From Bdellovibrionales bacterium (GTDB lineage: Bacteria > Bdellovibrionota > Bdellovibrionia > Bdellovibrionales > UBA1609): 64,000 nucleotides of DNA. Below, one piece after another: positions 20,368 through 36,048 of this stretch (position 1 is the stretch's first letter; every line of letters begins with the position of its first letter). The position numbers and the translations under genes are program-made. The stretch is taken from positions 128,001 to 192,000 of the forward strand of contig CBDHDF010000006.1 of NCBI GenBank assembly GCA_965261545.1. Direction: 5' to 3'. The notes under the pieces were generated by a model. It worked only from the letters and a program-made list of their open reading frames with translations, had not been told where the DNA came from and ran no database searches.

Positions 20368-21263
20368 GGTCCTCTCCGTTTGTCGATTTGAATAAATCTT
20401 TTTATAAAATCTCCTCTAAAGTGAATCCAATAATCAAGCACCCCAATAAGGCTCAGTAAAAAAGGGAGGTAGAGAATCAATAGGAGGGTGATAGTCACTC
20501 TCCAGAAGATTGAGAGGCGAAACACATGAAAATATTTCAAGATAACAGCTAAGCCTTGAAAAAAATAGGCCAGTGTTGAAACATACAAGACATTTACTGA
20601 AATTTTCCATACCAAAGGAGCATTTTCCTTCATGAAGGATCCCAACAAGGAGAAAATAAAGAACCAGATGACAAACTCTGGAACTTGAAAGCCAATGAGA
20701 GATCTTCTAAATGGGATCCTTACATGCATCCAGTTGGACACTTTTTTTTCAAAAAGAAGAGATACCACCAAAGATAAAATCGATAAGAAAATAACCATGG
20801 ATGGGACATAGATTAAAATATCCGTCTGATTTAACATCTTCAAAGTTTCTTGGGGCCACTGGACCTGTTGAATCCCCTTATCCAAATAAATCTGGACTTT
20901 GTCCACAAAGGAAAAGCCAGAGTAGAGGGCCCATAACCAAGTGCTAAGAAAAGACAAGCTCAAACAAGAGCCAACAGCAAAAGTTATGGCAGTGAAATAA
21001 GTGTGGCCATAGAGCAAAGCTTCATTGTTGAGTCCTACCATAAGACTGAGAATGGCAAAAACAAAACCAAGTTCAACAAAGCCCAGTTGAATAATAACGA
21101 GAGCGGTAAGCATGTAGCATAAATAATACAGCCCCCCCCCAAGTGTCTGCCGAGAAATATGCATGGGCACAGCTCCCAATACAATGGTGATAGCACCTGC
21201 TGTTAGAAGTACAGACCAAAGAATGCAAAGAAACTCTTTAATCAGTTTTGTCACTTTTATCAC
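20364..21263 (-). CDS. DUF2232 (YybS-like) membrane protein
   Basis: Polytopic hydrophobic protein with YFFQGLAV and IGVLDYWIHFR, in its usual position before rplI. Confidence 0.8.
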   Translation of the reverse strand: MIKVTKLIKEFLCILWSVLLTAGAITIVLGAVPMHISRQTLGGGLYYLCYMLTALVIIQLGFVELGFVFAILSLMVGLNNEALLYGHTYFTAITFAVGSCLSLSFLSTWLWALYSGFSFVDKVQIYLDKGIQQVQWPQETLKMLNQTDILIYVPSMVIFLSILSLVVSLLFEKKVSNWMHVRIPFRRSLIGFQVPEFVIWFFIFSLLGSFMKENAPLVWKISVNVLYVSTLAYFFQGLAVILKYFHVFRLSIFWRVTITLLLILYLPFLLSLIGVLDYWIHFRGDFIKRFIQIDKRRGP

Positions 21264-22035
21264 TCATGGCTTGGCCACTCTGGCCACCGGCATCGTTATC
21301 CTTTGAATCACTCACGGCTTTATCGCTTTGGTCACCCCCAGTTTTGTCAGGGGAGCCGGGGATATGATCTCTAGTTTTGGCTTTGTGAACAAGACCTTTG
21401 TCCACGGTGGACCTATCATTGGAGTCTCTTCTTGGCTTATCATCGGAAGTTCTTCTTGGCCTATCATCGGAAGTTCTGCTTGGCTTATCATCGGAAGTTC
21501 TGCTTGGCTTATCATCGGAAGTTCTTCTTGGCCTATCATCGGAATCTCTTCTTGGATTATCAGCGGCTCCCTTTTGGTGAAAAGATCCTCGGTCTCGGCG
21601 AAAGGGCTTTGATCCTTTGGCTTGATTCTTGCGAGCCTGAGCCTTAGCCTCTCTCTCTTGATCTCGAATTCGGGAGGTCTCAATAACTTCTCTATATTTC
21701 TCTAAGTGCTCCCCGACGCTTTTTCGAGTATCCAATCGTTGGTGAAAAAAGCGCAATACCTGATCGCTGATACGCATCGTTCTTTCCAGCTCTTGTATGC
21801 ACTCTGCCTTTGCAGTAAAGGTGCAGTGAAAATAAATACCCATTTTCACCTTATCAATGGGGTTGCCAAGTCGGCGTTTTCCCCAAGTATCAATGTGGTT
21901 GATTTCACCTAAGAACTTCTGGATGATTTCTTTGTTTTTTCTAAATAAATTCCTTTGGCCGTCCTCACTGGTGTCAGGGTGCATAATAACAACTGACTCA
22001 TAATTGCGAACGGGTCTTTCAACATTAAGTTCCAT
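21238..22035 (-). CDS. rpsF: 30S ribosomal protein S6 with long charged repetitive C-terminal extension
   Basis: RNYESVVIMHPD, DTWGKRRLGNPI.K, ELERTMRISDQVLRF; ATG at 22035 with AAAGGA RBS. Confidence 0.93.
   Translation of the reverse strand: MELNVERPVRNYESVVIMHPDTSEDGQRNLFRKNKEIIQKFLGEINHIDTWGKRRLGNPIDKVKMGIYFHCTFTAKAECIQELERTMRISDQVLRFFHQRLDTRKSVGEHLEKYREVIETSRIRDQEREAKAQARKNQAKGSKPFRRDRGSFHQKGAADNPRRDSDDRPRRTSDDKPSRTSDDKPSRTSDDRPRRTSDDKPRRDSNDRSTVDKGLVHKAKTRDHIPGSPDKTGGDQSDKAVSDSKDNDAGGQSGQAMSDKSDKTD
21412..21566 (-). repeat. in-frame 24-bp tandem repeat x6.5 in rpsF, encoding (P-R/S-R-T/D-S-D/N-D-R/K)n
   Basis: Units C(C/T)TATCATCGGAAGTTCT(T/G)CTTGG start at 21412, 21436, 21460, 21484, 21508, 21532, partial 21556. 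Confidence 0.95.
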
Positions 22036-22037
22036 AT

Positions 22038-22108
22038 GATTCCTTTCGGTTTTTAGCCCCCTATGGCCTGGCTCATACATGGCCTACCTACACAAGGAGC
22101 AAGGATGT
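22038..22108 (-). promoter_or_regulatory. putative S6:S18 ribosomal protein leader RNA
   Basis: Minus strand reads TCCTTGCTC...GAGCCAGGCC...GCTAAAACCGAAAGGA: 5' TCCTT can pair with the SD AAGGA and a CCG sits just 5' of the SD. Confidence 0.6.
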
Positions 22109-22192: not shown

Positions 22193-22951
22193 TTGATACA
22201 CTATGTGATAAGTATGAATGTCACTCCCTATCTCTATATTATCGCAGGCCCCCTGAAAGGCTCAAAAATTCGCCTACGACCTAGTCTAACCCTGGGAAGA
22301 AAGAAGGCCAATATCAATCTTAAGGACTCCAAAGTTTCCAGCCTTCATGCTCAGATTTCAAGGGATACTGAGGGGCAATGGTGCATTGAAGATATGGGTT
22401 CACGCAATGGAATCTACCAAAATGGAATTCGCTACAAAAAAGTGATTCTCAAAGAAAAAAAACCAATTTTTATTGGAGATAACCTTTTTGTTCTAAAGTA
22501 CAAACCAACAAAAAAAGAAGACCATAATAAGAGGGAGGCCAAAGGCGAAAAATCTCTCCAGGTCCCTCAGCAAGCACCATGGGAAAAGAGGCTGCTAAAA
22601 TTTTGCAATGATTTGAGACTCAATGCAAAAAATATTCCTTGCTCAATACATCCCTTTCATCCGGCAATAATGCTAAGCATTATCAGCGGGATTCAAGCAG
22701 AGACGCAGTGGTATATAGGGTATGGTCCTCGAGTGTTAGGAGCCCGCTCCTTGGATTTTAAGCTTTTTGAACCGAACCTGCCAGATTATAGTTTTAAACT
22801 TAGCTCTAAAAAGCAGAAGGCTGTATTTAAGACTGAACAGCCCCATATTGTTAAACTCAATGGATACTCTATTTCTTCGGCCTCCTTAAGTCATGGAGAT
22901 ATTATCTCCATTAGCGAGACAAGAATCCAAGTGAGCTTCTTAAGTGTCTAA
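22193..22951 (+). CDS. FHA domain-containing protein (second degenerate FHA-like domain at C-terminus)
   Basis: TLGR, VSSLHAQI, IEDMGSRNGIY; C-terminal VKLNG...LSHGDIISI. Confidence 0.85.
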   Translation: MIHYVISMNVTPYLYIIAGPLKGSKIRLRPSLTLGRKKANINLKDSKVSSLHAQISRDTEGQWCIEDMGSRNGIYQNGIRYKKVILKEKKPIFIGDNLFVLKYKPTKKEDHNKREAKGEKSLQVPQQAPWEKRLLKFCNDLRLNAKNIPCSIHPFHPAIMLSIISGIQAETQWYIGYGPRVLGARSLDFKLFEPNLPDYSFKLSSKKQKAVFKTEQPHIVKLNGYSISSASLSHGDIISISETRIQVSFLSV

Positions 22952-23152
22952 TTTTTTTGTCATAATTACAAAGTTCTTTTAAAACTCCATCTTTAAATTG
23001 ACATATTTCACAGGCATTGTTACCGGGTATTCCTAGTTCAAGGTTCAAGTCTAAGTCAGTTTCTGTTTTAGGACAAAATGCATGAGTGAGATATTGCAGC
23101 CCAGCATGAGCCGCTATAGTTCAAGCAAGTGGAGAAACTAAGGAGAAAATCA

Positions 23153-26100
23153 ATGAAAACAATGAAAATAAAGTTTTTATCCTTAAAGTTAGTAATTATC
23201 ATTACAACCATTATAACAACGACAACGACTCGTATTGTTTGGGCTGATACAGCCGATACGTCCAATATCGACATCGTTGATTTATCCTCCTACCCCCTCT
23301 ACCCATTGAGAAAAGACTTGGGTGAAAACTTAATTGCTGGCGAGAAAGAAAGTGTCGAACGCTCTGTTAAAGCGACAGATATCCTCATAAAAAAAAGATG
23401 GCAAGAAGATGGTTTTGCAGGACGAGGAGACCACAGTAAGTCCCATGGATGTTATCCATCGAAGTTTAAAGTACTGCCCAATCTACCTGAGGAATATAGG
23501 GCTGGAATTGGTAAAAAAGAGAACCAAGGAAAAGTATTTTTTTCAGTGGCACGTCTTTCTAATCAAACAACTCCCGATGTGCCTGACATAAGGGCTCCCT
23601 CTTTAGGATTTGTCTTAAAAGTATTTCTAGACAAGGACGAGAAGGACCCCACATTGCTACCAATACATTTTTCGGAGGAAATCAAAACACAGGATTTTCT
23701 CACTGGTTCCAGTCAAACTTTCATGATGCCCAATATCAACGCCTATGCAAACCTTTTTGTAAATCGTTCCAAAGGTATTTTGGGAAAGATTTTAATCGCA
23801 CTGAGACATCCCATCATTGTCTATGAGAGAAAAATAAAACCAATGTTTTTTGATCATACAAACTCCCTCGTTGCTCTTGAGAGAACATTTTGGTCTCCAG
23901 CCCCCTATGCTTGGGGGGATCGGGCTGCAAAATATAGGTTCACCCCCTGTCATGACTTTAATAGGAGTGAATTGGGAGAAGACCATGTAGATAAACCCAA
24001 CTACCAACAAGATAGCATCAAAAAATTTCTTTCTGAAAAAAGCATCTGCTATAACTTAGAGGTTCAACTGAGACCTGCGAGTCACACGGATTCTGTACAC
24101 CATGATAAAAATTTTCCTATCGAAGATGCTTCTATCTTTTGGCCCACAGATCAAGCTAAATATCACGCTGTGGCTCAACTTACTATTCAAAAGGAAACTT
24201 TACCCCTTTTAGATGAAGAATGTGAGTCCTTGTCCTACAACCCATGGCACGGGTTGAAGGCCCATCAACCTCTAGGAAATCTCAATAGAGGTCGACTGTC
24301 TGTGTATAAACAAAGTTTTCTCTCCAGAAAGAAACTTTATAGCGAGCGTTTAAACTATGATGGCAGCTATGATATCTTTAAGAAGTATGTCTTGAGTTTT
24401 CCATTGTTTAACAAATATGGAGACCTCATCATGCAAATATCTAAAGAGCGTGAAGATCTCATGAAGAAAAATTTATTTGATACAGGATTAGACACAAACA
24501 ATGGTGAGATTGACTGCGATAAGGTGATGGCTCAACCCCATAGAACCGCTGAGGGAGTGTGTTATTTTCACGGCCTTCAAGTTGACGTAGGGTATGGGGA
24601 ATCAAAAAATACCACTTATGTGGGAAGCAATAAGGCTCGTATCGGGCGGAATATGCGCCCGCCTAAAGATGAAGAATTAAAATCTATGGAAGAAAATCTT
24701 CTTTCGCCCAATCCTCGACAAATTAGTAAAGAGCTTTTTACTCGCAAAGAGGGGTTCATTCCAGCAACAACCATCAATCTTTTGGCTGCAGCTTGGCTTC
24801 AAGCACAGAATCATGATTGGTTTTCCCACGGAAAAAATGTCGCCACTCGTCCTTCAAAAAAAAATGGAGGGAATCAATTATCTGAAGAGCAAAAAAAGAT
24901 GTTTGATCCTATTTTGGTTCCTCCCGTTCCTGGAGACGATTTATTTCCCCATGGAATGTTAGCTCCTCGCACGCGCCCCGATTTTAGTCAAACTCCTCAG
25001 CCGGGGTATTTTTCCACAGTTCCCCGTAAGTATAGTAAGCATTACGATAATGACTATAAGCGTGAATACCCTCGAACTTTTCGCAATGTTGTCACTCACT
25101 GGTGGGATGCTTCCCAGATCTATGGCAGTGATGCTCAAACGATTTTAAAGGTTCGCACCAATCCGCTTACTGGAGAGCTTTTGCCAAATGGTCAAATTGC
25201 CGTGGATAAAGTTCACCGCCGCCTCTATTACGATAAAAACAATCGTCCTATTACAGGCTTTTCAGATAACTGGTGGGTGGGTCTTGAACTGTTTCACTCC
25301 TTATTTGCCATGGAACATAATGCGGTGACAGACAGGCTTTCTAAAGCCTATCCAGACATGACTGATGAGTCTTTATTCAATACAGCTCGTCTTGTTGTAT
25401 CCGCATTGATTGCAAAGATTCACACTATTGAGTGGACACCGGCTCTTTTGGACAATCGAGCCTTACATGTTGGAATGCGAGCCAACTGGTATGGCTTGGG
25501 AGAGCCCATCAAATTTTTGAACAAAGAATGGCTTGAACGGGTTGTCAGAAATCTATCTGATAGATTTGGACATGCCATTTATGGAGCTACAGGAGAAGGC
25601 TCTCTACATCTTTATGATATTCCCTTTTCGTTGACAGAGGAGTTTGTCGCTGTTTATCGAATGCATCCTTTGATTCCCGATGATTTTATTATTTATGACC
25701 ATAATGATGGTCAAGAAGCAGGCCGAATTCCCATCAATGACACTCGCGATGAAAAGGCTAAGGAATTGAGCTATGAATCTTCATCATCTCCCCTCTCCCT
25801 TTTGTACTCCCTAGGTGTAAATCACCCAGGGGCGCTGACGCTACACAATTTTCCCAAATTCATGCAAAACATCAGTGTTTCAAATAACACTGAAAATAAG
25901 CCTACAGTGAGCTTTGATCTTGCGGCTCTTGATGTTCTCAGAGATCGTGAGCGACTTGTGCCACGCTACAACGAGTTCCGCAGACAGCTTCGTTTAAAGC
26001 CTATCCAAACATTCTCTGATTTAACAAATAATAAGGAAGACGTTGCTTTGTTGGAGAAGATTTATGGGGGAGATGTAGAAAAATTGGATTTATTGGTGGG

Positions 26101-26395
26101 TTCTCTTGCAGAAAATGATCGTTATGAAAGGTTTGCCTTTGGAAATACTCCTTTTTACATCTTTGCTCTTATGGCATCTCGCCGTTTGATGGCAGACCCT
26201 TTCTACTCGGATTATTTTACACCAGAGTTTTACACCCAGGTGGGCTATGATTGGGTTCAGAGTGAAACAATGATAAATGTGATTGTGAGGCACTATCCTG
26301 AACTTGAGGAAGCCTTCCAAGGAGTTGCCAATGCCTTCTATCCTTGGTCACAGCCACACACTGAAGAGTTACCAACTTCGCCATCTGAAAAGTAA
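23153..26395 (+). CDS. secreted fusion: catalase-related hemoprotein domain plus alpha-dioxygenase-like heme peroxidase domain
   Basis: Signal peptide ending IVWA; RGDHSKSHGC, ARLSN, HQPLGNLNRGRLSVY (catalase-like); WLQAQNHDW, THWWDASQIYG, IAKIHTIEWTP, EEFVAVYRMHPL, RDRER.VPRYNEFRR, ASRRLMADPF (alpha-DOX-like); AGGAG RBS before ATG 23153. Confidence 0.85.
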   Translation: MKTMKIKFLSLKLVIIITTIITTTTTRIVWADTADTSNIDIVDLSSYPLYPLRKDLGENLIAGEKESVERSVKATDILIKKRWQEDGFAGRGDHSKSHGCYPSKFKVLPNLPEEYRAGIGKKENQGKVFFSVARLSNQTTPDVPDIRAPSLGFVLKVFLDKDEKDPTLLPIHFSEEIKTQDFLTGSSQTFMMPNINAYANLFVNRSKGILGKILIALRHPIIVYERKIKPMFFDHTNSLVALERTFWSPAPYAWGDRAAKYRFTPCHDFNRSELGEDHVDKPNYQQDSIKKFLSEKSICYNLEVQLRPASHTDSVHHDKNFPIEDASIFWPTDQAKYHAVAQLTIQKETLPLLDEECESLSYNPWHGLKAHQPLGNLNRGRLSVYKQSFLSRKKLYSERLNYDGSYDIFKKYVLSFPLFNKYGDLIMQISKEREDLMKKNLFDTGLDTNNGEIDCDKVMAQPHRTAEGVCYFHGLQVDVGYGESKNTTYVGSNKARIGRNMRPPKDEELKSMEENLLSPNPRQISKELFTRKEGFIPATTINLLAAAWLQAQNHDWFSHGKNVATRPSKKNGGNQLSEEQKKMFDPILVPPVPGDDLFPHGMLAPRTRPDFSQTPQPGYFSTVPRKYSKHYDNDYKREYPRTFRNVVTHWWDASQIYGSDAQTILKVRTNPLTGELLPNGQIAVDKVHRRLYYDKNNRPITGFSDNWWVGLELFHSLFAMEHNAVTDRLSKAYPDMTDESLFNTARLVVSALIAKIHTIEWTPALLDNRALHVGMRANWYGLGEPIKFLNKEWLERVVRNLSDRFGHAIYGATGEGSLHLYDIPFSLTEEFVAVYRMHPLIPDDFIIYDHNDGQEAGRIPINDTRDEKAKELSYESSSSPLSLLYSLGVNHPGALTLHNFPKFMQNISVSNNTENKPTVSFDLAALDVLRDRERLVPRYNEFRRQLRLKPIQTFSDLTNNKEDVALLEKIYGGDVEKLDLLVGSLAENDRYERFAFGNTPFYIFALMASRRLMADPFYSDYFTPEFYTQVGYDWVQSETMINVIVRHYPELEEAFQGVANAFYPWSQPHTEELPTSPSEK

Positions 26396-26466
26396 AAGTA
26401 GCCGACCATGGTCGTATTGGGTCATAAGTAAACGACACCAAGGAGCGGTTTGTCATTTTGCTCATC

Positions 26467-27144
26467 TTATGCCACCTCCTTGATATTTTCCTGTCGTACT
26501 AATTTGAAAAACTCTTTAAGTTTTAGTTCAAGTCCCCTCTTTAGCTCAAAGGGGTTGAGTTCAGCTTTACGCCTCCTCAGTGCTTCATCCTCCTCATGGT
26601 TTAATACCCCACTTTCAATAACTCTCTGATAGGGAGTCTTAGGGGTGCCATACTTTTTCTTGATTCTGGCTCCCACTCGTACCTTTTCCTGAAGTTTAAA
26701 TGTGGGGAGAAAGAAGTTCTGGAGGGGACTCCAGTGGTTTTTATAAATGTCATTCATTAAAGGAACTAGCCTTGGATCTTCAAACCTCTCATAGCCAAAC
26801 AATTCTCTGACGTGGGTGAAGTTTTTTTGCTCAATGTAGCAGTTGTCATTCTTTTTGTAGGGGCGAGAACGAGTGAACTTGATGTTAGATAATTGGGTGA
26901 ATTGAAGGACAGGCTTGTTTAAGAACTCACTTCCTGAGTCTGAGTTCATGGCCAGTAGTTTAAAAGGTATAGCTCGGTTAATGTTGTTGATTTGCCTTCT
27001 CACCTCCGTCCCTTTCTTGGTAAACATAGCCCGACACTCTGTCCATGTGGTGTTAATGTCGGTCACTGTAAGAGAGCTGATAAAAGGGCCTTGGGCACTC
27101 GTTCCACAGTGAGCAACCGTATCTGTTTGTATATAACCAGGCCT
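26467..27144 (-). pseudogene. C-terminal half of element A transposase
   Basis: RPGYIQTDTVAHCG, NSDSGSEF, FTRSRPYKKNDNCYIEQKN; joins in frame to 32346-32841. Confidence 0.9.
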
Positions 27145-27248
27145 CAATGCCGTTTCCTTAAGAAAAATCTCTTGAAATCATTAGATAAATCGACAAGAAT
27201 AAGACTTGTTTTATTTTACACCCAACCCTCAACCAAGGAGTAAGTCAC

Positions 27249-27740
27249 ATGCAATCCAATATTGATCTCGAAAGCCCCCAAATGACGAGTTCGCGTCACA
27301 GATGACCATTTTATTCTACCAAAACTTGATTCTTCCTTCAAGCCAGAGCACCTTGTCGATCCAGAAAAACAAAAAAGGAATCGAAAATTTAATCCTCAAA
27401 TTTTCTTTTTTACCATTATCTATCTTATTTCCGGAACAAATTACGAAGGCTACCAAATCGCTCTTAAGACGGTATGGACTCATTTTGGTGACCTGCTTCT
27501 CATGCCAGTCAAAAGCAGTCTCAGCAAGATACGTCAAAGTATTTCTTACCTATTTTTCAAAGATATCTTTGAATCTCTGATTACAGACTACGAACCATTG
27601 AGAAAAACGTTTCATGGTTTTTATATCTATGCCATAGATGGCGACCAATTAGCACTTTCTCGCTCTAAAGATCTTTTAAAGGAGGGTTATTGTGGGTACC
27701 CTTGCCCAAATGAGATGGAAACTCATTTCTTACGTATGTA
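27249..27740 (+). pseudogene. N-terminal part of IS4 transposase B (frameshifted near 27284-27302, interrupted at 27740)
   Basis: AAGGAG RBS plus ATG 27249; downstream frame KRNRKF...KSSLSKIRQ...YAIDGD. Confidence 0.8.
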
Positions 27741-27870
27741 CCTGAATTCTACAAAAATGGTAACAAGGTTTAGGTCTAAAGTCTAGAATCTGACTTCAGA
27801 ACAAATATAACGCGGTTTCAGACCTCTTTTGAATTGAAAGAATTCAAAATCCTTGTTACCATTGGTAACA

Positions 27871-28651
27871 ATGTCTTATTTACATGAGCAAAAGAGAAAC
27901 GGTAAAGTTTACGTTTATGAGATACACGGCTATTGGGACTCAAAGAAAAAACAATCTCGCCAAAAAAGAACCTATTTAGGGCGTAAAGATGAGGTCAGCG
28001 GTGAGATTAAAACTAAAAAGAAAAAAGTCCCTATAGGCTCCTATACTGTTGGATCTTTATATTTTCTGAAAGAAATTTGTAAACAATCCAAACTACTTAA
28101 AGTTGTCAAACAAGTTTTTCCTGAGGAATATGAAAAGATTCTTCATTTGTCATGTTTTAAGATTATAAAGAAAGAGCCTTATTATTTTTATAAGTCTTGG
28201 TGTGAAGAGTCTTACGTTTCCAAAGAAATTTCTATGGGATCGACCAAAACTAGTAGACTTTTACACTCTATTGGTCAAGACGAGAAAAAAATAGATATTT
28301 TTTTTACAAATTGGATAAAAGAGCTTAAATCTACTGGCTCTATCCTATTTGATATTACATCTATTTCTTCTTATGGGTCCAAAAATGAATTTTTGGAACG
28401 AGGTTACAATAGAGATGGCGAAAATTTAGAACAAGTAAATTTGGGTTTGATTGCACGAGCTTCCAGCACTAATTCAATAGGCTTACCTTTAGCTTACAGG
28501 GTATACCCTGGCAGTATTACGGATGTAACGACACTGAGGAATGTAACAGATCTTGTGGGTAGATATAAGTTAAATCTTGATATTTTAGTGATGGACAAAG
28601 GGTTTTATAGTCAAGAAAACATAAAGAATATGAACAAACAAGGCTTGAGCT
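27871..28651 (+). pseudogene. N-terminal half of IS1634 transposase C
   Basis: YVYE..YWD..KQSRQKRTYLG, LFDITSISSY, GYNRDGENLEQVNLG, VMDKGFYS. Confidence 0.9.
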
Positions 28652-28678
28652 CATAGGTGTTCGTGGTTTTTTATTCTT

Positions 28679-29923
28679 TCATAGCAAGACCTTTTTAGCC
28701 ATATTCATTGATGTTTTTCGCCGTCGGTAGTTTGTGTCATAAATTTCATGGGAGAATATCTTGATCTTCTCTATCAAAATATTTAAATACTTTTGAGATG
28801 AGCTTAGGAGATATTTGATAAAATCAGAGGCTAATAAGACGGTAACCTTAGCAACTCTTTGAAACGATGTGGAGTCATTTTGTTCCTTATTGAGTTTAGT
28901 TCTTCCTATCCTCAAAACAACACTTGATGTGAGGTGAGCCGCTAATGAAGCAAGAAGAAGACTCTCTATGATATTTTGATCGTTTGAGGTGATCTGATTT
29001 GCATTCAAAGAATTCTTACAAGATTTGAAAATAAGTTCACATTGCCAACGTAAACGATAAATTGGATATATGGACTCCGCTGCCACATCTAAATTCGTGC
29101 AATACCAATGATAGCGTTTTTCGGAGGAATTCCAGAAGCCTACAATTCTCAAACTTACCCATTTACCATTGGACAAGACACTGCCTATAAATTCAACAAC
29201 ATCGTTTTTTTTCTTGAGTTTAATATCAGAGAACTCTTTTCCAACATAGTAATCTGGCAAACCTTCAACAACAGCATCAATAAGAATAGAGGCATTTGAC
29301 TTTACTCTAGACAAGAAAAATCCTTTAGCTTCATGAATAGATGACAATAAGCCATAGTCCCAATATCCCAAATCAAAGATGACTAATTTTCCAACGAGTT
29401 CCTTTATATCAGGAAAGCACTTCCTATCGTTAGTGGAAGACGGAGTTAATTCGAACCAAGTCATTATACCACTGAATAAACTGAAACAAGCGTGCCATTT
29501 AATTCCTGCGTTTGTTCTTGTCCCTGGAAAATTCTCAGATGCTCCATCCCAAAGGCTTATTGTGCTTGAGTCAACAAGAAGAACGTCTGAGACTCCCAGT
29601 TGTAATAATATGGCTTTGCTCCCATGAAAAGCTCCATGAGATAGCTTTATCATGAGCATTTCAACCAGTTTACTCAGAAGCTCTTTTAATCTTTTTCTAG
29701 AGAGTCTTTCCCAGAAGCTGTGTCTTTCAATTCTTAATCCTAAATGACTTATCATAAACCTCCTAATTCCCTCTATTGAATATGTCTTAGAGTCTCCCTG
29801 GAATGACAAGACAAGAGCCACAATAAACTCAAGAGGTGGAATGGTTGCCCGAGAGTCCTTTTCAGGAATAACTTTCTTGAAACATTTTTTGATCGTTTTA
29901 AGTGTTTGAGCTTCCGTGCTCAT
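28679..29923 (-). CDS. IS4-family transposase of element D
   Basis: LLVDSSTI, IFDLGY, YRLRWQCELIFK (YREK motif). Confidence 0.93.
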   Translation of the reverse strand: MSTEAQTLKTIKKCFKKVIPEKDSRATIPPLEFIVALVLSFQGDSKTYSIEGIRRFMISHLGLRIERHSFWERLSRKRLKELLSKLVEMLMIKLSHGAFHGSKAILLQLGVSDVLLVDSSTISLWDGASENFPGTRTNAGIKWHACFSLFSGIMTWFELTPSSTNDRKCFPDIKELVGKLVIFDLGYWDYGLLSSIHEAKGFFLSRVKSNASILIDAVVEGLPDYYVGKEFSDIKLKKKNDVVEFIGSVLSNGKWVSLRIVGFWNSSEKRYHWYCTNLDVAAESIYPIYRLRWQCELIFKSCKNSLNANQITSNDQNIIESLLLASLAAHLTSSVVLRIGRTKLNKEQNDSTSFQRVAKVTVLLASDFIKYLLSSSQKYLNILIEKIKIFSHEIYDTNYRRRKTSMNMAKKVLL

Positions 29924-30067
29924 ATTTGCCCCCTGCGTTTAAAAAATAAAAATTTCCTCCAATTAATCTTGACCTATTAAGATACTAACGCGAGAATCAT
30001 TAAGTCTGTAGATAACTCACTTGTATCTATGCGGATTCATTGTATTCGACAGGAGCAAAAAATAGCA

Positions 30068-30493
30068 ATGATTTTTGGACTTTTAATATTACTTTCTTTG
30101 GGATCCTTTATATCTCTTCTTATTTCCTTATTGGTATTTGGATTTGGTTATTTACTGGCACTCATCCTCCCATTAACTCAGATGCAAGCATCTTCTTTGT
30201 TTTTTGCTTCACTCACACTTTTGGTTCTTACATGTATTTTTATGATGCTCATATCTCAATTTAAAAATCGTTACTTTCACCAGAATCTAGGAGATATTCT
30301 TTTTGATAATTTGGATGAGGATTTGGAAGATGAAAAGCAAAAAAAAATTGTAACTGAAGATATGTCTGCATCACAGCAGAAAAATGACCAAAGCGAAAAA
30401 ATTGGAAGAAATCAATCCTGTCCATGCGGAAGTGGAAAGAAATTTAAATTCTGTTGTTCCCAAAAGTCCACAGTTCTTTCGTTACACAATTAA
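30068..30493 (+). CDS. passenger membrane protein with C-terminal SEC-C zinc motif
   Basis: Hydrophobic N-terminus, acidic linker, KIGRNQSCPCGSGKKFKFCC; ORF opens at 30029, AGGAG precedes ATG 30068. Confidence 0.8.
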   Translation: MIFGLLILLSLGSFISLLISLLVFGFGYLLALILPLTQMQASSLFFASLTLLVLTCIFMMLISQFKNRYFHQNLGDILFDNLDEDLEDEKQKKIVTEDMSASQQKNDQSEKIGRNQSCPCGSGKKFKFCCSQKSTVLSLHN

Positions 30494-30669
30494 GTCTCTT
30501 AAAACACATGGCTTGTCGTGGATATCAAATGTCAATCTGCGTCCATTTCTCAAAATACCATCTATAAATATTTATAAATCGCCCACTTCCCTCTATGTAA
30601 AAAAGGAGGCTTGAAAAGTATTTCCATTAATTCGGAATTAAAATTAGAAAAAAACCACGAACACCTATG

Positions 30670-31482
30670 GGCTTGAGCTATATAGTTCCTATGAGCTTCA
30701 GCACTCAGAAATCTAAAGAAATTTTATTTGACTTGCATGACAAGTTATTATCTCCTGGATCATTATTTGCTTTCTATGAGCAAGTATACTCCTACTCTAA
30801 GAAAGAAATAGAAATTGGAAGTGAAAGTTGTATGGCTCATGTTTTTTTAGAAGGTAAGAGGCGGTCTGATCAGGAGTCTATTTTTATAAGAAAGATATCA
30901 GATTTAGAAAATCTTTTTTTAGAAAAAAATTTTTCAAGTAAGGATGATGCATCTCTTTATTTGAAAGAGACATTAAAAACTAAGAAAAATTTTTTTTTCA
31001 TTGAAGAATCCGAGAATAAATTTGTAATTGAGAGAAACCTCAATGTTTTTCGAGATGAGATGATAAAGATGGGCTGCTTGATTCTCATCACTAATAACAT
31101 TCAAATGGATCGGGATGAAATTTTAAGATTATATAGAAGAAAAGATTGTGTAGAAAAGGTTTTTCGTGCTTTTAAGCATGACATAGATGAGAAAAGAAAT
31201 AGGACACATTCGTTGATCGCAATGAGAGGAAGTATTTTCATTAATTTTATCTCTTTAATTTTGATTACATGGGTTGATCATGTGATGAAGAAAAATGAGC
31301 TATACAAAAAAATGACAAAAGCCGAACTTTATAAGATATTAGACCGTCTCAAGTTGTATGAGCTAGCCACAGGCACTCCCATACTTGGTGAAGTGTCAAA
31401 AAAGCAAAAAGATATTTTGAAGGCGTTCAATGTAAGTACAAATATTAATCCCAGCCGTCGCTTCACAATGTCAGGACCTTAG
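30670..31482 (+). pseudogene. C-terminal half of IS1634 transposase C
   Basis: LITN, LYRRKDCVEKVFRAFK, GSIFINFISL; in frame with 27871-28651 (527 aa rejoined). Confidence 0.9.
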
Positions 31483-31518
31483 GCCAGAATCCTTGTTACC
31501 ATTTTTGTAGAATTCAGG

Positions 31519-32332
31519 TATGTATCTATCTCATGCTTATGACGTTTTATCGGGTGTGACAAAGAATCTTTGCTATTCTCCCGCTCTCAACGAAATCGCC
31601 AATGCTATTCAAATGATAGGTAGTTTTGAGAGTAATAGCATAACTCTCTACGATAGGCTTTATTTATCTACAGAGATTATTAAGGCCCATGCTCAAGCCA
31701 GTAACTTCTTTATTGCGCGTTGTAAGCGAGGCTCTACTTTTATCCCCATCGTAAATTTATTTAATGGCCCAGGTTGGTATTCACAAATGGTTATTGAGGG
31801 GGTGGTCATTCATCTCTATAAGTATAAAAACCCAAAGACTGGGGAGTTCTCTGTTTTGGCCACTAATCTTCCGCATGGCTCCTTGGACAAGAAGGATATG
31901 GTTGCTCTTTACTCTCGTCGTTGGGAAATAGAAACGACATTTCGTGATTTTACATCGACAATGAAAATGGAGCAGTGGCACTCAACAAGCCTTAATGGAA
32001 TATTGCAAGAGCTGTATTCTTATTTTTGGCTCTTCAATTATACAAAGATTCAAATGAGCATAAATGAGGATGAAGACAGTGTGAATCAGTTGGTAAAAAA
32101 TGACTACAAAAAACCTAACTTTAAACTGATTCTTGATTTCATAATGGATAGCATCCCCCTTTTTGTTGCGGGGCTCTATCAGAAATTTAGGAAGCAGATA
32201 AAGTTGCTGATGAAGATTTCAATGGAGAAGAGGAGGCACTTCAAAAGAAGCTATGAAAGGTCTATCAAAAGGGCTGGGAGTTCTTTTAAAAGAAATAGCT
32301 TAACGCAGAGGCAGAGGGGTGTGGTGGCTTAA
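31519..32332 (+). pseudogene. C-terminal part of IS4 transposase B
   Basis: LYDRLY, LATNL, YSRRWEIETTFR; stop lies within right IR. Confidence 0.9.
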
Positions 32333-32345
32333 GGAAACGGCATTG

Positions 32346-32841
32346 AACCAGGCCTTGTGACCTTGGAGTCCAGTGTATTGATGGGAACCTTATTTTTCAT
32401 ATATTGGGCAGGACAGGTTGTGGACAATCCCTTAGAGACCACTGAAGCCAAGCGAATTTCCTTCAGATAACGCTTCAAGGTGCTGGCACTCATTTTTTCT
32501 AACTGAAGCTTTAAGTGGGGAGGACACGACTCATAATTGGGGAGCCAATCCGGTAGAGCGGCTTTTATTCGTACAGCCGAGATTTTTTCCATTTGTTCCC
32601 ACAAATATTTGATGTGGGGTCGTAACTCCTCTTGAGAATAAGCCAGAGGCCTCCCTGACCGCTTGAGTGGCACAGAGCCATTATTTTGTTGAATCTCGTT
32701 TAATCTCCTTATGAGTCGCTTCCTAGAGAGGTTTGTGACCAGTTCCGCATGATCTAGCAACTCCCCTTTTTTAGCCTTAGAACTTTGTTGATATAAGCCT
32801 GAAATTGCAGTTAAGTAAGCATTAACAGCCGACTCCCTCAC
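32346..32841 (-). pseudogene. N-terminal half of element A transposase
   Basis: GTG at 32841 after GAGGGGG; Y..SSK..KG..LD....T.LSRKRLIR.L and MSASTLKRYL; 387 aa when rejoined. Confidence 0.85.
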
Positions 32842-33188
32842 TGAAGACCCCCTCGTTGATTGTTTGTTTCCAAAGATCAATCTTACTGAGAGGATCAACA
32901 GAGGGGTAGCTCGGCTGATCTGTTTTAGAAGGCGTAACAACCGGTGTCTTATTGAGTGAGGGAGTCTCCTCAACGCACATTTTTGACTCAAAAAGAGAAA
33001 AGTGGGAACTCGGTGTCGGAATAATGAGCCAGCCAGGTGGAGGACCATAACCCGGGCACCACGAAGGTGTTTTAATGTGATGCGTCTTGGTGTCGTTATT
33101 TTTGACCCAATTCGGTGCTTGGTGCTATGCAGGGTTTTTCCACCTATGTCATATGCCATGCCCATGAATCTATGCTATAGTTTGCACT

Positions 33189-34103
33189 ATGAAGATGATT
33201 CGTAAAGAAACAGGGTATGTGAAAAGTTTTGACGGAACTTCCATTTACTATGAGGTGAGGGGTGAGGGAGCCCCCCTCGTCTTTATGTATGGTATTGGAT
33301 GTGTCATGAATCACTGGGCGCCTCAGATAAAATATTTTTCCCAATCCTTTCAAACCATCACCATGGACTATAGGGGACATCACAAATCAGCCCCTCCCGA
33401 AGACCCTAGTCAGCTATCCATAGCCTGCCTTGTAAAAGACCTTCAAATACTCCTCCAGCACCTAGACATCCCTAAAGCCTCTTTTTGGGGGCACAGTTTT
33501 GGTGCCCAAGTCTTAACTGCTGCCTATGAAAAACAACCTGAAGCCTTTGAAAACATAATCTTCGTCAATGGCTTCGTTAAGAATCCAATTCAAGGTATGT
33601 TTGGCAGCCAATGGCCCCATAAAATTTTTCATAGGATAAGGTCAGCCCACGAAGTCTTCCCAGACACACTTGGGTATCTGTGGAAAAAAATCATCAACCA
33701 GCGAATTTCTATATATTTGAGTTCTCTTTTAGGAGGGTTTAACCTCCAGTTGACCCATTTGAAAGATATTGAAATTTACATTCGTGGGGTGGCTTCCGTG
33801 GACCTTGAGTGCTTTCTCGCTCTCTTTGAGGATATGATGCATTATGATGGAAGCCACGTGCTGAATCAAATTGAATGCCCAGCCCTTATTATTGCCGGAG
33901 AAAAGGATAGCGTCACTCCCTTCAAGCACCAGGAAGAAATTCACCAGGGAATAGTCCATAGTGAACTTCTCATTGTTCCAGTGGGCTCCCACTGCTCGCA
34001 ACTCGATATGTCTGACCTCATTAACCTGCGTGCTGAAAAGTTTTTGGTGTCATCCGGTCAAATGTCACCTGGTCAAGATCTTAAAACCGAAGGCAAGAAG
34101 TAG
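33189..34103 (+). CDS. alpha/beta fold hydrolase
   Basis: DYRGH, WGHSFG nucleophile elbow, GEKD, GSH. Confidence 0.9.
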   Translation: MKMIRKETGYVKSFDGTSIYYEVRGEGAPLVFMYGIGCVMNHWAPQIKYFSQSFQTITMDYRGHHKSAPPEDPSQLSIACLVKDLQILLQHLDIPKASFWGHSFGAQVLTAAYEKQPEAFENIIFVNGFVKNPIQGMFGSQWPHKIFHRIRSAHEVFPDTLGYLWKKIINQRISIYLSSLLGGFNLQLTHLKDIEIYIRGVASVDLECFLALFEDMMHYDGSHVLNQIECPALIIAGEKDSVTPFKHQEEIHQGIVHSELLIVPVGSHCSQLDMSDLINLRAEKFLVSSGQMSPGQDLKTEGKK

Positions 34104-34135: not shown

Positions 34136-36048
34136 CCCGAGTTTGACAGCAGCATCTGCGTCAAACGAATGATATTAAAGGATTAACGCATATAGTTGTA
34201 TTTTGTTTATCCACACTTGTGGGCATTAAGGATTCTGGGAGGGATGGGGACGCCTGCGGCTTTAAATAAGGAGTTGGCATTGCCAGTGATATCTGTGCGG
34301 GTCCAAATGACTTGATCACGAATTTTAACAGGGATAGCCCTAACTTCCTTGAGTTCCCTCATGGCCTCTACAACAGTTAAAGGTCGCTCTTTAACATGAC
34401 CAATGCCTATGGCTGGGCTTTTTAGGTTCATCTTCTTATCTCTTAAACATTTTGTAAGGTGGGCCTCACAAAGATAAGTTAAAAAGCATAGAGTTAAATG
34501 TCCAATAATCCTCTGGTCTGTCCAATGGAAAACAGGACGTGTTTTCAAAGTCCCTTTTAACTCACCAAAAGCATCTTCAATTTTCCACAATTCTTTGTAG
34601 TTGATAATAATCTCATCTGCCGTCAAGTCTTTGACATTTGTAAGGACGGCAAAAAAACCATCAATTTTTTCATCTAATTCTATTTGTTCTGCATTTAATT
34701 CAGGTTTTTTATTTTTGTCGTCAGCCATCTTTACATATTTCTTATAACCTTTATTGGAAACAAAAGTACTAGACTGAACACCTTTAGAAGATAGTTTTCC
34801 TTCGATCTTTTCAAGAAGGGATTCTCTAGATTTTTTATCTCTCTCTGCTCTTTTCCTAGACCAAGTCACAATACATCTATGCCCCCCATGGTCTGTTTCG
34901 TAAACAGCAAGCTCATTCTCATATACCCAGCTAAAACGATTTAAATCATAGACCTCTTGTTTCTTTTCTTTTTTTAAAGATCCAAGCTTCATACCAACAA
35001 TAAACTCGCTTTGATCCTCACTGAGTTTGTCAGTATTAGCCTTTGATAAAAGCCCCCTATCAGCCACAAAAATGAAACGGCGTACATTAAACTTTTTTCT
35101 CATTTTATCAACAATATCTGAAAGCGTCTTGCCTTCAAAAGTATTACCAGGGAAAACCTCAAAACCTAAAGGGATGCCATCCCGATTCACCAACAAACCA
35201 AAGACAACTTGGGTGCAGTCTGATCGTCTCTCTTTACTATAGCCAAATTGACGAAGTTTCCCTAAGTCTGTTCTTGTACTCTCGAAGCGTAAGGTTGTTA
35301 AATCATACAACACAATGTCTACTTGGAAATTAAATAAATCTCGCCCCACCCAATAAAGCGAGTTCTCTATTTCATCCTTATGGGAGGCAAGTAAGTCCAT
35401 AGACCGATAAATATGCTGGAGACTCAAATCACCCTTAATCATGTCTGGGTAAAAAGATTTTTGCCAATACTCAAAAACCTTTAACTTGGAACTAGGAGCA
35501 ATAAATCGGGTGGCAACTAAGGTAAAAATCACCTTACATAAATCAAATTGAACTTTCTCATGAGAATCTTTTATGTCTTTGAGGGTCTTATTGATACCCA
35601 GTTGATCAAACAACTTTTGTAAAATCAGCAAGGGACCCAAAATGAAAGTCTCTTCGATGTAAAGCTCCTTAGCCAATTGACTCACAGTGAGAAGCTCTCG
35701 GTGGCGGGATACGGCCTGCGCCAAACTATTAATCTTATCCTCTCCTCCTTCTCCAGCCTTACCTAAGGACATGAGCATGCGTTTTTTGGATTTGCCTTTT
35801 TCTCTGTAGGACTCCACAAGGTGGTAGTAGCACTGACCTTTTGAGTTTTTAGTCGTTTGGATGTACATGAGGATATTTTCTACATATTTCTATGATATAT
35901 CAATATTTAAAACGATAAAATCCTATTTTGTTTTCTACACTTTTTTTGCGTCAATTTTAATTTTTCCAGCAGCTACCATTATATTTCAGTACAACCCCAA
36001 TTTCTGGAAATTTCGCATTTTAACGCAGATGCTGCTGTCAAACTCGGG
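34136..36048 (-). mobile_element. IS1634-family element, copy 1 (1913 bp), with 37-bp flanking direct repeat
   Basis: 26-bp IR CCCGAGTTTGACAGCAGCATCTGCGT; DR AGTAGGTGCCTGTGGATAATGATGTGGAAAAGTAAGT at 34099-34135 and 36049-36085. Confidence 0.96.
34207..35868 (-). CDS. IS1634-family transposase
   Basis: LYDLTTLRFE, FGYSKERRSD, FVADRGL, YKELWKIEDAFGELK, RPVFHW. Confidence 0.95.
   Translation of the reverse strand: MYIQTTKNSKGQCYYHLVESYREKGKSKKRMLMSLGKAGEGGEDKINSLAQAVSRHRELLTVSQLAKELYIEETFILGPLLILQKLFDQLGINKTLKDIKDSHEKVQFDLCKVIFTLVATRFIAPSSKLKVFEYWQKSFYPDMIKGDLSLQHIYRSMDLLASHKDEIENSLYWVGRDLFNFQVDIVLYDLTTLRFESTRTDLGKLRQFGYSKERRSDCTQVVFGLLVNRDGIPLGFEVFPGNTFEGKTLSDIVDKMRKKFNVRRFIFVADRGLLSKANTDKLSEDQSEFIVGMKLGSLKKEKKQEVYDLNRFSWVYENELAVYETDHGGHRCIVTWSRKRAERDKKSRESLLEKIEGKLSSKGVQSSTFVSNKGYKKYVKMADDKNKKPELNAEQIELDEKIDGFFAVLTNVKDLTADEIIINYKELWKIEDAFGELKGTLKTRPVFHWTDQRIIGHLTLCFLTYLCEAHLTKCLRDKKMNLKSPAIGIGHVKERPLTVVEAMRELKEVRAIPVKIRDQVIWTRTDITGNANSLFKAAGVPIPPRILNAHKCG

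Follow-up and report, generated by a model that had tools for sequence, protein, structure and literature searches.

Among the closest described systems, the allene oxide synthase (AOS)-lipoxygenase of the coral Plexaura (cAOS-8R-LOX; 1U5U, 3DY5) combines a small N-terminal catalase fold with a C-terminal fatty-acid dioxygenase, a non-heme lipoxygenase. In bacteria, a peroxidase-cyclooxygenase dioxygenase works with a catalase-related hemoprotein in Nostoc punctiforme, where a linoleate 10S-dioxygenase partners a 10S-hydroperoxide lyase (PMC13049297, PMC9579011); the lyase is described as a separate gene in PMC13049297, whereas PMC11719350 refers to this dioxygenase system as a "catalase-heme dioxygenase fusion protein". 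The alpha-dioxygenases (alpha-DOX) of plants and cyanobacteria are single-domain enzymes not described as exported. According to PMC9305512 and PMC6914826, their product has two fates, spontaneous decarboxylation, which yields the C(n-1) aldehyde, or reduction to the 2-hydroxy acid; the latter paper reports that Arabidopsis alpha-DOX1 couples with the heme protein caleosin CLO3 to give the 2-hydroxy acid. Here we analysed a stretch of 64,000 nucleotides from a Bdellovibrionales bacterium (assembly GCA_965261545.1, contig CBDHDF010000006.1, positions 128,001 to 192,000), referred to as the window throughout, in which one gene (23153..26395, +) encodes a 1080-aa protein composed of a predicted signal peptide, a catalase-related heme domain and an alpha-DOX-like domain. 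Bacterial alpha-dioxygenases are, to our knowledge, known only as single enzymes used in aldehyde production.

The gene is a single uninterrupted frame of 1080 codons, in agreement with the continuous ~1080-aa open reading frame (ORF) of an initial annotation that had been made from the bare sequence. We prefer the start ATG 23153 to GTG 23129 because a ribosome-binding site, AGGAG (23141..23145, +), sits 7 nt before the ATG. Contigs from three of four public runs, which represent one sample and possibly the source sample, bridge the domain junction without an indel, and eight full-length homologues (P0002-P0009, 50-58% identity) carry the same fusion; an assembly artefact or two separate genes are thereby ruled out. 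The fusion gene is single-copy in the genome, and its GC content at third codon positions (0.37, the 27th percentile of long ORFs) gives no compositional sign of recent foreign origin. A promoter and terminator scan returned 3 and 2 sites, compared with 8.1 and 3.6 expected, and contained nothing informative. In one contig of run X2, 97 bases within 23042-23140, just 5' of the ribosome-binding site, are swapped for 16 others. This strain variant lies in the likely promoter region and also removes the alternative GTG start.

For the C-terminal domain (residues ~421-1069; 24413..26359, +), the proposed alpha-DOX identity held. The domain matched PF03098 (E 1.5e-88), rice alpha-DOX 4KVJ (E 1.8e-93) and Arabidopsis alpha-DOX 4HHR (about 1e-93), and Foldseek ranks 1-4 were all alpha-DOX, whereas cyclooxygenase (COX; 2e-15) and lactoperoxidase (about 1e-15 to 1e-16) matched far more weakly. 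In the 4KVJ alignment, rice His157, His311, Trp315 and Thr316 correspond to His554, His757, Trp761 and Thr762; Ala331, Phe375, Tyr379 and His382 to Ala777, Phe831, Tyr835 and His838; and Phe549, Phe552, Ala556 and Arg559 to Phe1001, Phe1004, Ala1008 and Arg1011. Two rice positions are changed (Met325 to Leu771, Ile553 to Ala1005). With residue roles as given in PMC8720084, the domain has the distal His, the radical Tyr835 and proximal heme ligand His838 in a YRMH motif (25655..25666, +), the accompanying Phe375/Phe552 pair (Phe831, Phe1004), and the His311, Thr316 and Arg559 set that positions the carboxylate and the alpha-carbon. Among 143 related domains, His554 and Tyr835 are kept in all 143, His838 in 142, and His757 and Arg1011 in 141 each. 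The fold and the catalytic, heme and carboxylate-binding residues are thus the same as in rice 4KVJ/4KVK, Arabidopsis 4HHR and the three cyanobacterial relatives CsDOX, CalDOX and LepDOX, which the same paper presents as proven active alpha-DOX (PMC8720084). In contrast to the plant and cyanobacterial enzymes, the window's domain falls in a clade of Bdellovibrionota whose distal helix reads WLQAxNHDW, and it also differs from the Nostoc 10S-dioxygenase, which by description is COX-like, 542 aa long and oxygenates at C10. Conservation of the rice catalytic, heme and carboxylate-binding residues points to 2-hydroperoxy acids as the likely products of the C-domain from free fatty acids, with the C2 regiochemistry read from these residues. 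The survey in PMC8720084 dropped sequences of >1000 aa, and the word catalase is never used in the text covered.

As a single sequence, the N-terminal domain (residues ~42-399; 23276..24349, +) had no match in Pfam, NCBIfam or PDB, and its catalase relatives were reached by profile only: a 69-sequence profile retrieved MAP2744c (3E4W, 4e-13), cAOS (1U5U, 4e-5) and catalases. The AlphaFold2 model (predicted local distance difference test, pLDDT, 93) matched the catalase fold. It aligned with coral AOS-LOX at Z 24.5 (rmsd 3.8, 287 residues), with MAP2744c at Z 23.8, with the chanoclavine synthase EasC at Z 22.2 and with catalase at Z 21.9. The first three rows of the structure search are tied, and the matches to the small catalase-related structures 3E4W, 1U5U and 3DY5 span Z 23.8-24.5 over ~280-290 residues at rmsd 3.8-4.0. 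ESM Atlas returned "catalase family" clusters only (0.96). Profile and model together bear out the catalase-related identity given in the initial annotation, and all the motifs it had named are present in the protein: RGDHSKSHGC (His94) and NRGRLSVY (Tyr385) in the N-domain, and Q-x-x-x-HDW (His554), AKIHT (His757), YRMH (Tyr835, His838) and SRRL (Arg1011) in the C-domain.

By sequence alignment, the predicted heme site of the N-domain comprises Arg91, His94, Arg134, Arg381, Tyr385 and Arg392. Tyr385 (24305..24307, +), the predicted proximal ligand, falls in the stretch of the alignment that holds the proximal Tyr in 3E4W and 1U5U. The distal His94 is preceded by Asp93 (codons 23429..23434, +), where coral AOS has Thr66. 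Of the 206 catalase-like domains in the alignment, 55 have such an Asp-His pair (the window's protein or a near copy accounts for three rows), and these 55 form the RGDH subfamily, a long-branched group with support 100/100 in the N-domain tree. Arg91, Arg134 and His94 are kept in all 55 rows and Arg381, Tyr385 and Arg392 in 54; the distal-Asn position is Gly in 52, here Gly185 followed by Ser186. PMC5617202 gives Thr66, His67, Asn137 and Tyr353 as the coral AOS residues, takes a Thr immediately before the distal His as the mark of catalases that react with fatty-acid hydroperoxides, and reports that cAOS Asn137 is dispensable, loss of the distal Asn lowering the rate without necessarily abolishing the chemistry. 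Since Asp precedes the distal His and Gly replaces the distal Asn, the domain fits the marks of neither cAOS nor KatE catalases; from the latter it also departs in having no PF00199 match and a length of ~360 aa, against 475-510 aa for catalases (~480-750 aa for the KatE type). The heme site is, as far as the alignment tells, retained all the same. Plexaura cAOS likewise has the heme Arg, distal His and proximal Tyr, at 16% identity, but its partner is the non-heme lipoxygenase rather than a heme alpha-DOX. MAP2744c (15-16% identity to the N-domain) and Fg-cat of Fusarium are further truncated catalase folds used for non-catalatic chemistry. A separate catalase-like branch, termed RFNQ, has Gln for the distal His (L021, L023, L043, L045, L081, P0109 and P0115); four of its seven members are fused or adjacent to DOX.

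The protein is predicted to be exported through the Sec pathway. Residues 1-31 (23153..23245, +) form a predicted signal peptide with a basic n-region, a hydrophobic stretch at 13-22 and a V-W-A cleavage motif, judged by a hydropathy heuristic and by comparison with homologues. By the same heuristic, no hydrophobic 19-mer above 1.3 occurs outside the N-terminus, and a hydrophobic N-terminus is present in 10/10 close-clade proteins vs 8/28 other fusions, which supports, as a prediction, the export claimed in the initial annotation. Of the clade's 65 unfused DOX, 62 likewise begin with a hydrophobic segment (40 with a lipobox-like motif), as do 36 of 41 stand-alone RGDH proteins (24 lipobox-like), so that both parent families look extracytoplasmic. 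The genome encodes a ferrochelatase. Heme loading of the fusion protein is itself a prediction.

In the scheme that we favour, the C-domain would oxygenate a free fatty acid to the 2-hydroperoxy acid, and the N-domain would consume this 2-hydroperoxide as a hydroperoxide-dependent peroxidase, giving the 2-hydroxy acid and not the chain-shortened aldehyde. Both steps would take place outside the cytoplasm on one exported polypeptide, and the N-domain may protect the dioxygenase from its own peroxide. The odds that the C-domain makes the 2-hydroperoxy acid and that a peroxidase or peroxygenase reaction of the N-domain then uses it up are, in our view, about even. This reading of the N-domain draws on two precedents, CLO3 and Fg-cat. 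In the former, a functional analogy, a heme partner turns the unstable 2-hydroperoxide into the 2-hydroxy acid; CLO3 has an unrelated fold and is found on oil bodies as a protein of its own. The catalase Fg-cat has peroxidase activity towards a 13S-hydroperoxide (PMC11719350); its substrate is a lipoxygenase product, unlike that proposed for the N-domain. Fungal fusions of a dioxygenase to a cytochrome P450 (DOX-CYP) share the two-heme make-and-convert logic but differ by the P450 and by mid-chain oxygenation. The coupling of the two domains is supported by an RGDH gene behind an unrelated alpha-DOX, by both domain orders and an operon in the window's own family, and by repeated independent fusion or adjacency (see below); that all long RGDH proteins found are DOX fusions, and that other alpha-DOX-like proteins are joined to a P450 or a caleosin-like domain, points the same way. 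Of the conversion in cis proposed in the initial annotation, the tethering of the two domains stands, while channelling between them goes beyond the full-length model, which gives no confident arrangement (predicted template modelling score, pTM, 0.55).

The initial annotation had also considered AOS or lyase chemistry for the N-domain, and we regard it as unlikely that the domain rearranges or cleaves the hydroperoxide in the manner of the coral AOS/hydroperoxide lyase (HPL) or the Nostoc lyase, be it by decarboxylative cleavage to an aldehyde or by AOS/HPL action on a mid-chain hydroperoxide made by a DOX of shifted position. Coral AOS-LOX is the top structure match, though within 1 Z unit of MAP2744c, Asn137 of cAOS is dispensable, and the Nostoc 10S-dioxygenase offers a partnership of this kind. 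An allylic hydroperoxide is, however, required for AOS and lyase (HPL) reactions. Oxygenation of common fatty acids at C2 gives none, as the 2-hydroperoxide has no adjacent double bond, and this chemistry therefore fits poorly; furthermore, Thr66 is replaced by Asp, and the C-domain keeps the residues that position the alpha-carbon, with alpha-DOX matches at 1e-93 against 1e-15 for COX.

The pairing itself is widespread, and the rarity suggested by the initial annotation was not borne out. In a first search with 121 proteins including the query, a catalase-like domain preceded DOX in 28 and followed it in 2, and none was detected in the other 91 DOX proteins. Among the 150 best representatives (50% identity), retrieved with a query profile that favours fusions, the corresponding counts were 25, 7 and 118. 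Named carriers are Anabaena minutissima, Nostoc, Scytonema and Mycolicibacter, several records of the last entering the catalase part as a separate protein. Of 90 plasmid records with a match, sixteen, mostly from Rhizobium, match over 80% or more of the protein. For example, the "peroxidase family protein" fusions of Rhizobium phaseoli (WP_199287286.1), Nostoc sp. LEGE 12450 (WP_193948568.1) and Anabaena minutissima (MBD2365344.1) have the same domain order at 30-34% identity over 90-97% of the length. They are of separate origin, mostly lack a signal peptide, and have an N-domain of the RxxHAK/DFLxTN rather than the RGDH/DFLxG type. In the literature covered, which largely excludes subscription journals and for broad searches comprises the top results, we found no study of an alpha-DOX/catalase-like fusion, no paper joining Bdellovibrio to alpha-DOX/catalase-like enzymes and no description of a catalase-related enzyme for 2-hydroperoxy fatty acids; the architecture is thus widespread, with no characterisation found.

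A single clade of fusions was rejected for both the DOX domains (p-AU 3e-43) and the N-domains (p-AU 2e-43), and catalase-like linkage required 8 changes on the 39-row DOX tree, at least 5 of them forced by starred branches. The trees were computed under LG+G4 without mixture and midpoint-rooted; their 45, 52, 39 and 37 rows were picked by hand from the 143 DOX and 206 catalase-like domains. As judged from these trees, the fusions, which are met in both domain orders in cyanobacteria, on rhizobial plasmids, in mycobacteria and in other Bdellovibrionota, arose several times, and the coupling of DOX with catalase-like domains is recurrent but optional. What is distinctive here is the predicted export signal together with the RGDH N-domain subfamily, in a separately arisen member of a widespread pairing.

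Among 108 other genomes of the window's own family we found no second RGDH fusion. One genome (G280) has a DOX-then-catalase-like operon and another (G286) a reverse fusion cut by the contig end, both with catalase-like domains of a type different from RGDH; DOX occurs alone in G008 and in G063, which encodes the 45% identical P0044. One RGDH lineage was met at 12 loci in soil metagenomes (83-99% identical where compared): at 7 the gene comes straight after that of a lipoprotein-like alpha-DOX, which shares only 30% identity with the window's alpha-DOX, 2 loci have a short DOX remnant, and 3 have none in the 215-675 upstream bases. All seven long RGDH proteins found in a weak search were DOX fusions. 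The Bdellovibrionota origin of the gene is supported by P0083, which has that source label and is encoded in a genome (G250) from the order to which the window's genome belongs, and by Bacteriovoracaceae and Halobacteriovorax as carriers of the closest named unfused DOX. Among 40 long relatives scanned, a P450 was fused in one (P0261) and a caleosin-like domain, just under the Pfam cut-off, in another (P0319), and six gave a weak lipoxygenase match (P0208, P0220, P0234, P0235, P0236 and P0325).

Several further observations touch on these families. A group of ~915-aa proteins from Marinobacter, Oleiphilus and Litoribrevibacter (P0100, P0098, P0113 and relatives) joins a DOX-like domain to a conserved C-terminal domain of 300 aa that fits no Pfam family. 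This extension is faintly catalase-like by motif, and as hhalign gave no support (probability 6.6% and 0.6%), the group was left out of the fusion counts. On the Rhizobium phaseoli plasmid pRetR611c (L189, 6860-13376), a fusion heads four co-directional genes, the next of which is annotated as cytochrome c. In another family of the class (f10; e.g. G071, G077, G098, G120 and G141), 23 of 118 genomes, several of them complete, encode an alpha-DOX-like protein. Most of these proteins start like lipoproteins, and no linked catalase-like gene was seen; our literature search found no paper on them. A partial stand-alone RGDH copy (P0135) and the full fusion P0002 may share one contig of 86625 bases.

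A number of these data weigh against the coupled scheme. The Thr-His mark of hydroperoxide-reacting catalases is missing from the N-domain, and in the full-length model (pLDDT 70) both domains are folded but their arrangement is not confident. Our survey of 250 genomes of the class found a catalase-like match in 25, a DOX match in 27 and both in 5; only 2 of the 27 DOX-bearing genomes showed a linked catalase-like gene. Among 80 more distant catalase-like loci, 5 have a DOX-family gene within the locus. The closest DOX (P0010, 71%) branches within the clade of fused proteins and has no N-domain; we read it as a sister protein that has lost this domain. Finally, no DOX was seen in the DNA recovered for a second RGDH branch (seven loci, L166-L172, and L008), genome G261 gave no DOX match, and the RGDH gene of L008 adjoins a GMC-type oxidoreductase ORF.

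The occurrence of this branch without DOX would suit a general extracytoplasmic scavenger of H2O2 or small organic peroxides, which would hold peroxide high enough for activation of the DOX but low enough to spare it, or guard the envelope, and leave the product to become an aldehyde by spontaneous decarboxylation. MAP2744c, which ties for the best fold, has peroxidase activity. Moreover, loss of the distal Asn need not abolish the chemistry, and the N-domain is the only catalase-fold domain found in the 96.8% complete genome, in which catalase (PF00199), KatG (PF00141), Mn-catalase (PF05067), cytochrome c peroxidase (PF03150) and PF10417 gave no match (a search with the lipoxygenase family PF00305 was likewise empty, as was its control). 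Lack of a catalase is, however, usual in this family: any PF00199 match was seen in 12 of 80 genomes and a strong full-length one in 7. The Gly that nearly all RGDH rows have for the distal Asn and the short domain length speak against a scavenger, as do some DOX-linked catalase-like domains without a distal His (RFNQG type, P0009), and a general scavenger would not need repeated recruitment to alpha-DOX. We consider this explanation possible but doubtful.

It is very unlikely, in our view, that the N-domain oxidises a non-lipid substrate with hydroperoxide or O2 as in EasC, that it is a decayed heme-binding appendage, or that the substrates of the C-domain are not free fatty acids. The match of EasC to the N-domain model would agree with the first of these. 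The N-domain does diverge faster than the C-domain (46-55% vs 59-68% identity), P0009 has a Tyr at the distal His position, and a 99% identical record, P0122, agrees in 458 of 462 residues and then runs out of frame. Yet the heme ligands are nearly invariant across the RGDH subfamily, the flanks of the locus contain no biosynthetic genes, and the P0122 frameshift falls at a C-run inside the DOX domain and is absent from every contig compared at the locus. A natural split form can accordingly be ruled out for P0122; we attribute its frame loss after residue 462 either to an assembly error or to a strain-level break.

The one-gene exported version offers a direct way to see how a catalase-fold domain handles a 2-hydroperoxy fatty acid. 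It would carry the catalase-related oxylipin enzymes of corals and cyanobacteria over into alpha-oxidation, add a new type of distal pocket (Asp-His, no Asn) and give a function to many "peroxidase family protein" fusions that RefSeq lists for Rhizobium, Nostoc and Scytonema; it might also open a self-sufficient way of making 2-hydroxy fatty acids. More tentatively, and with clearly less confidence, the RGDH proteins may constitute an exported, hitherto undescribed catalase-fold class dedicated to 2-hydroperoxy fatty acids, in a widespread, repeatedly re-invented bacterial DOX plus catalase-like pathway to extracellular 2-hydroxy acids or other C2-derived signals that a Bdellovibrionota lineage here acquired as one polypeptide for prey or host lipids. 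The role against prey or host proposed in the initial annotation is unsupported.

The fusion gene sits in an insertion. To its left lies an FHA-domain gene (22193..22951, +; PF00498), a core gene present in 54 of 60 family genomes and not part of the enzyme system; to the right lies an alpha/beta hydrolase (33189..34103, +). The hydrolase directly follows the FHA gene in all 19 family loci examined, whereas here the two are 10 kb apart and the gap is filled by the fusion gene and nested insertion sequences (IS; 26412..33188), an integrase-type IS split by DDE transposases. Given this synteny, the fusion gene and the nested IS represent an insertion, and with the IS cluster beginning 17 bases past the stop codon, the accessory origin beside an IS hotspot that had been suspected is supported. 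IS copies are numerous genome-wide: ~117 for 27000-27600 and 31500-32400, ~37 for 34200-35900, and ~11 matches for the integrase-type element, which is split into 26412-27147 and 32329-33165. An IS burst of such size may point to recent host association. Within 28679-30493, a DDE transposase and a small SEC-C-motif membrane protein (30029-30493) occur together ~30 times in the genome, the membrane protein gene being a passenger inside the mobile element.

Elsewhere in the window, no S18 ORF of at least 90 aa is present between the genes for ribosomal protein S6 and DUF2232. S6 itself (21238-22080, -; ~280 aa) has a long C-terminal tail of near-tandem repeats. A complete rRNA operon is present, with 16S (3507-5018), a tRNA (5245-5318), 23S (5594-8580) and 5S (8842-8958).

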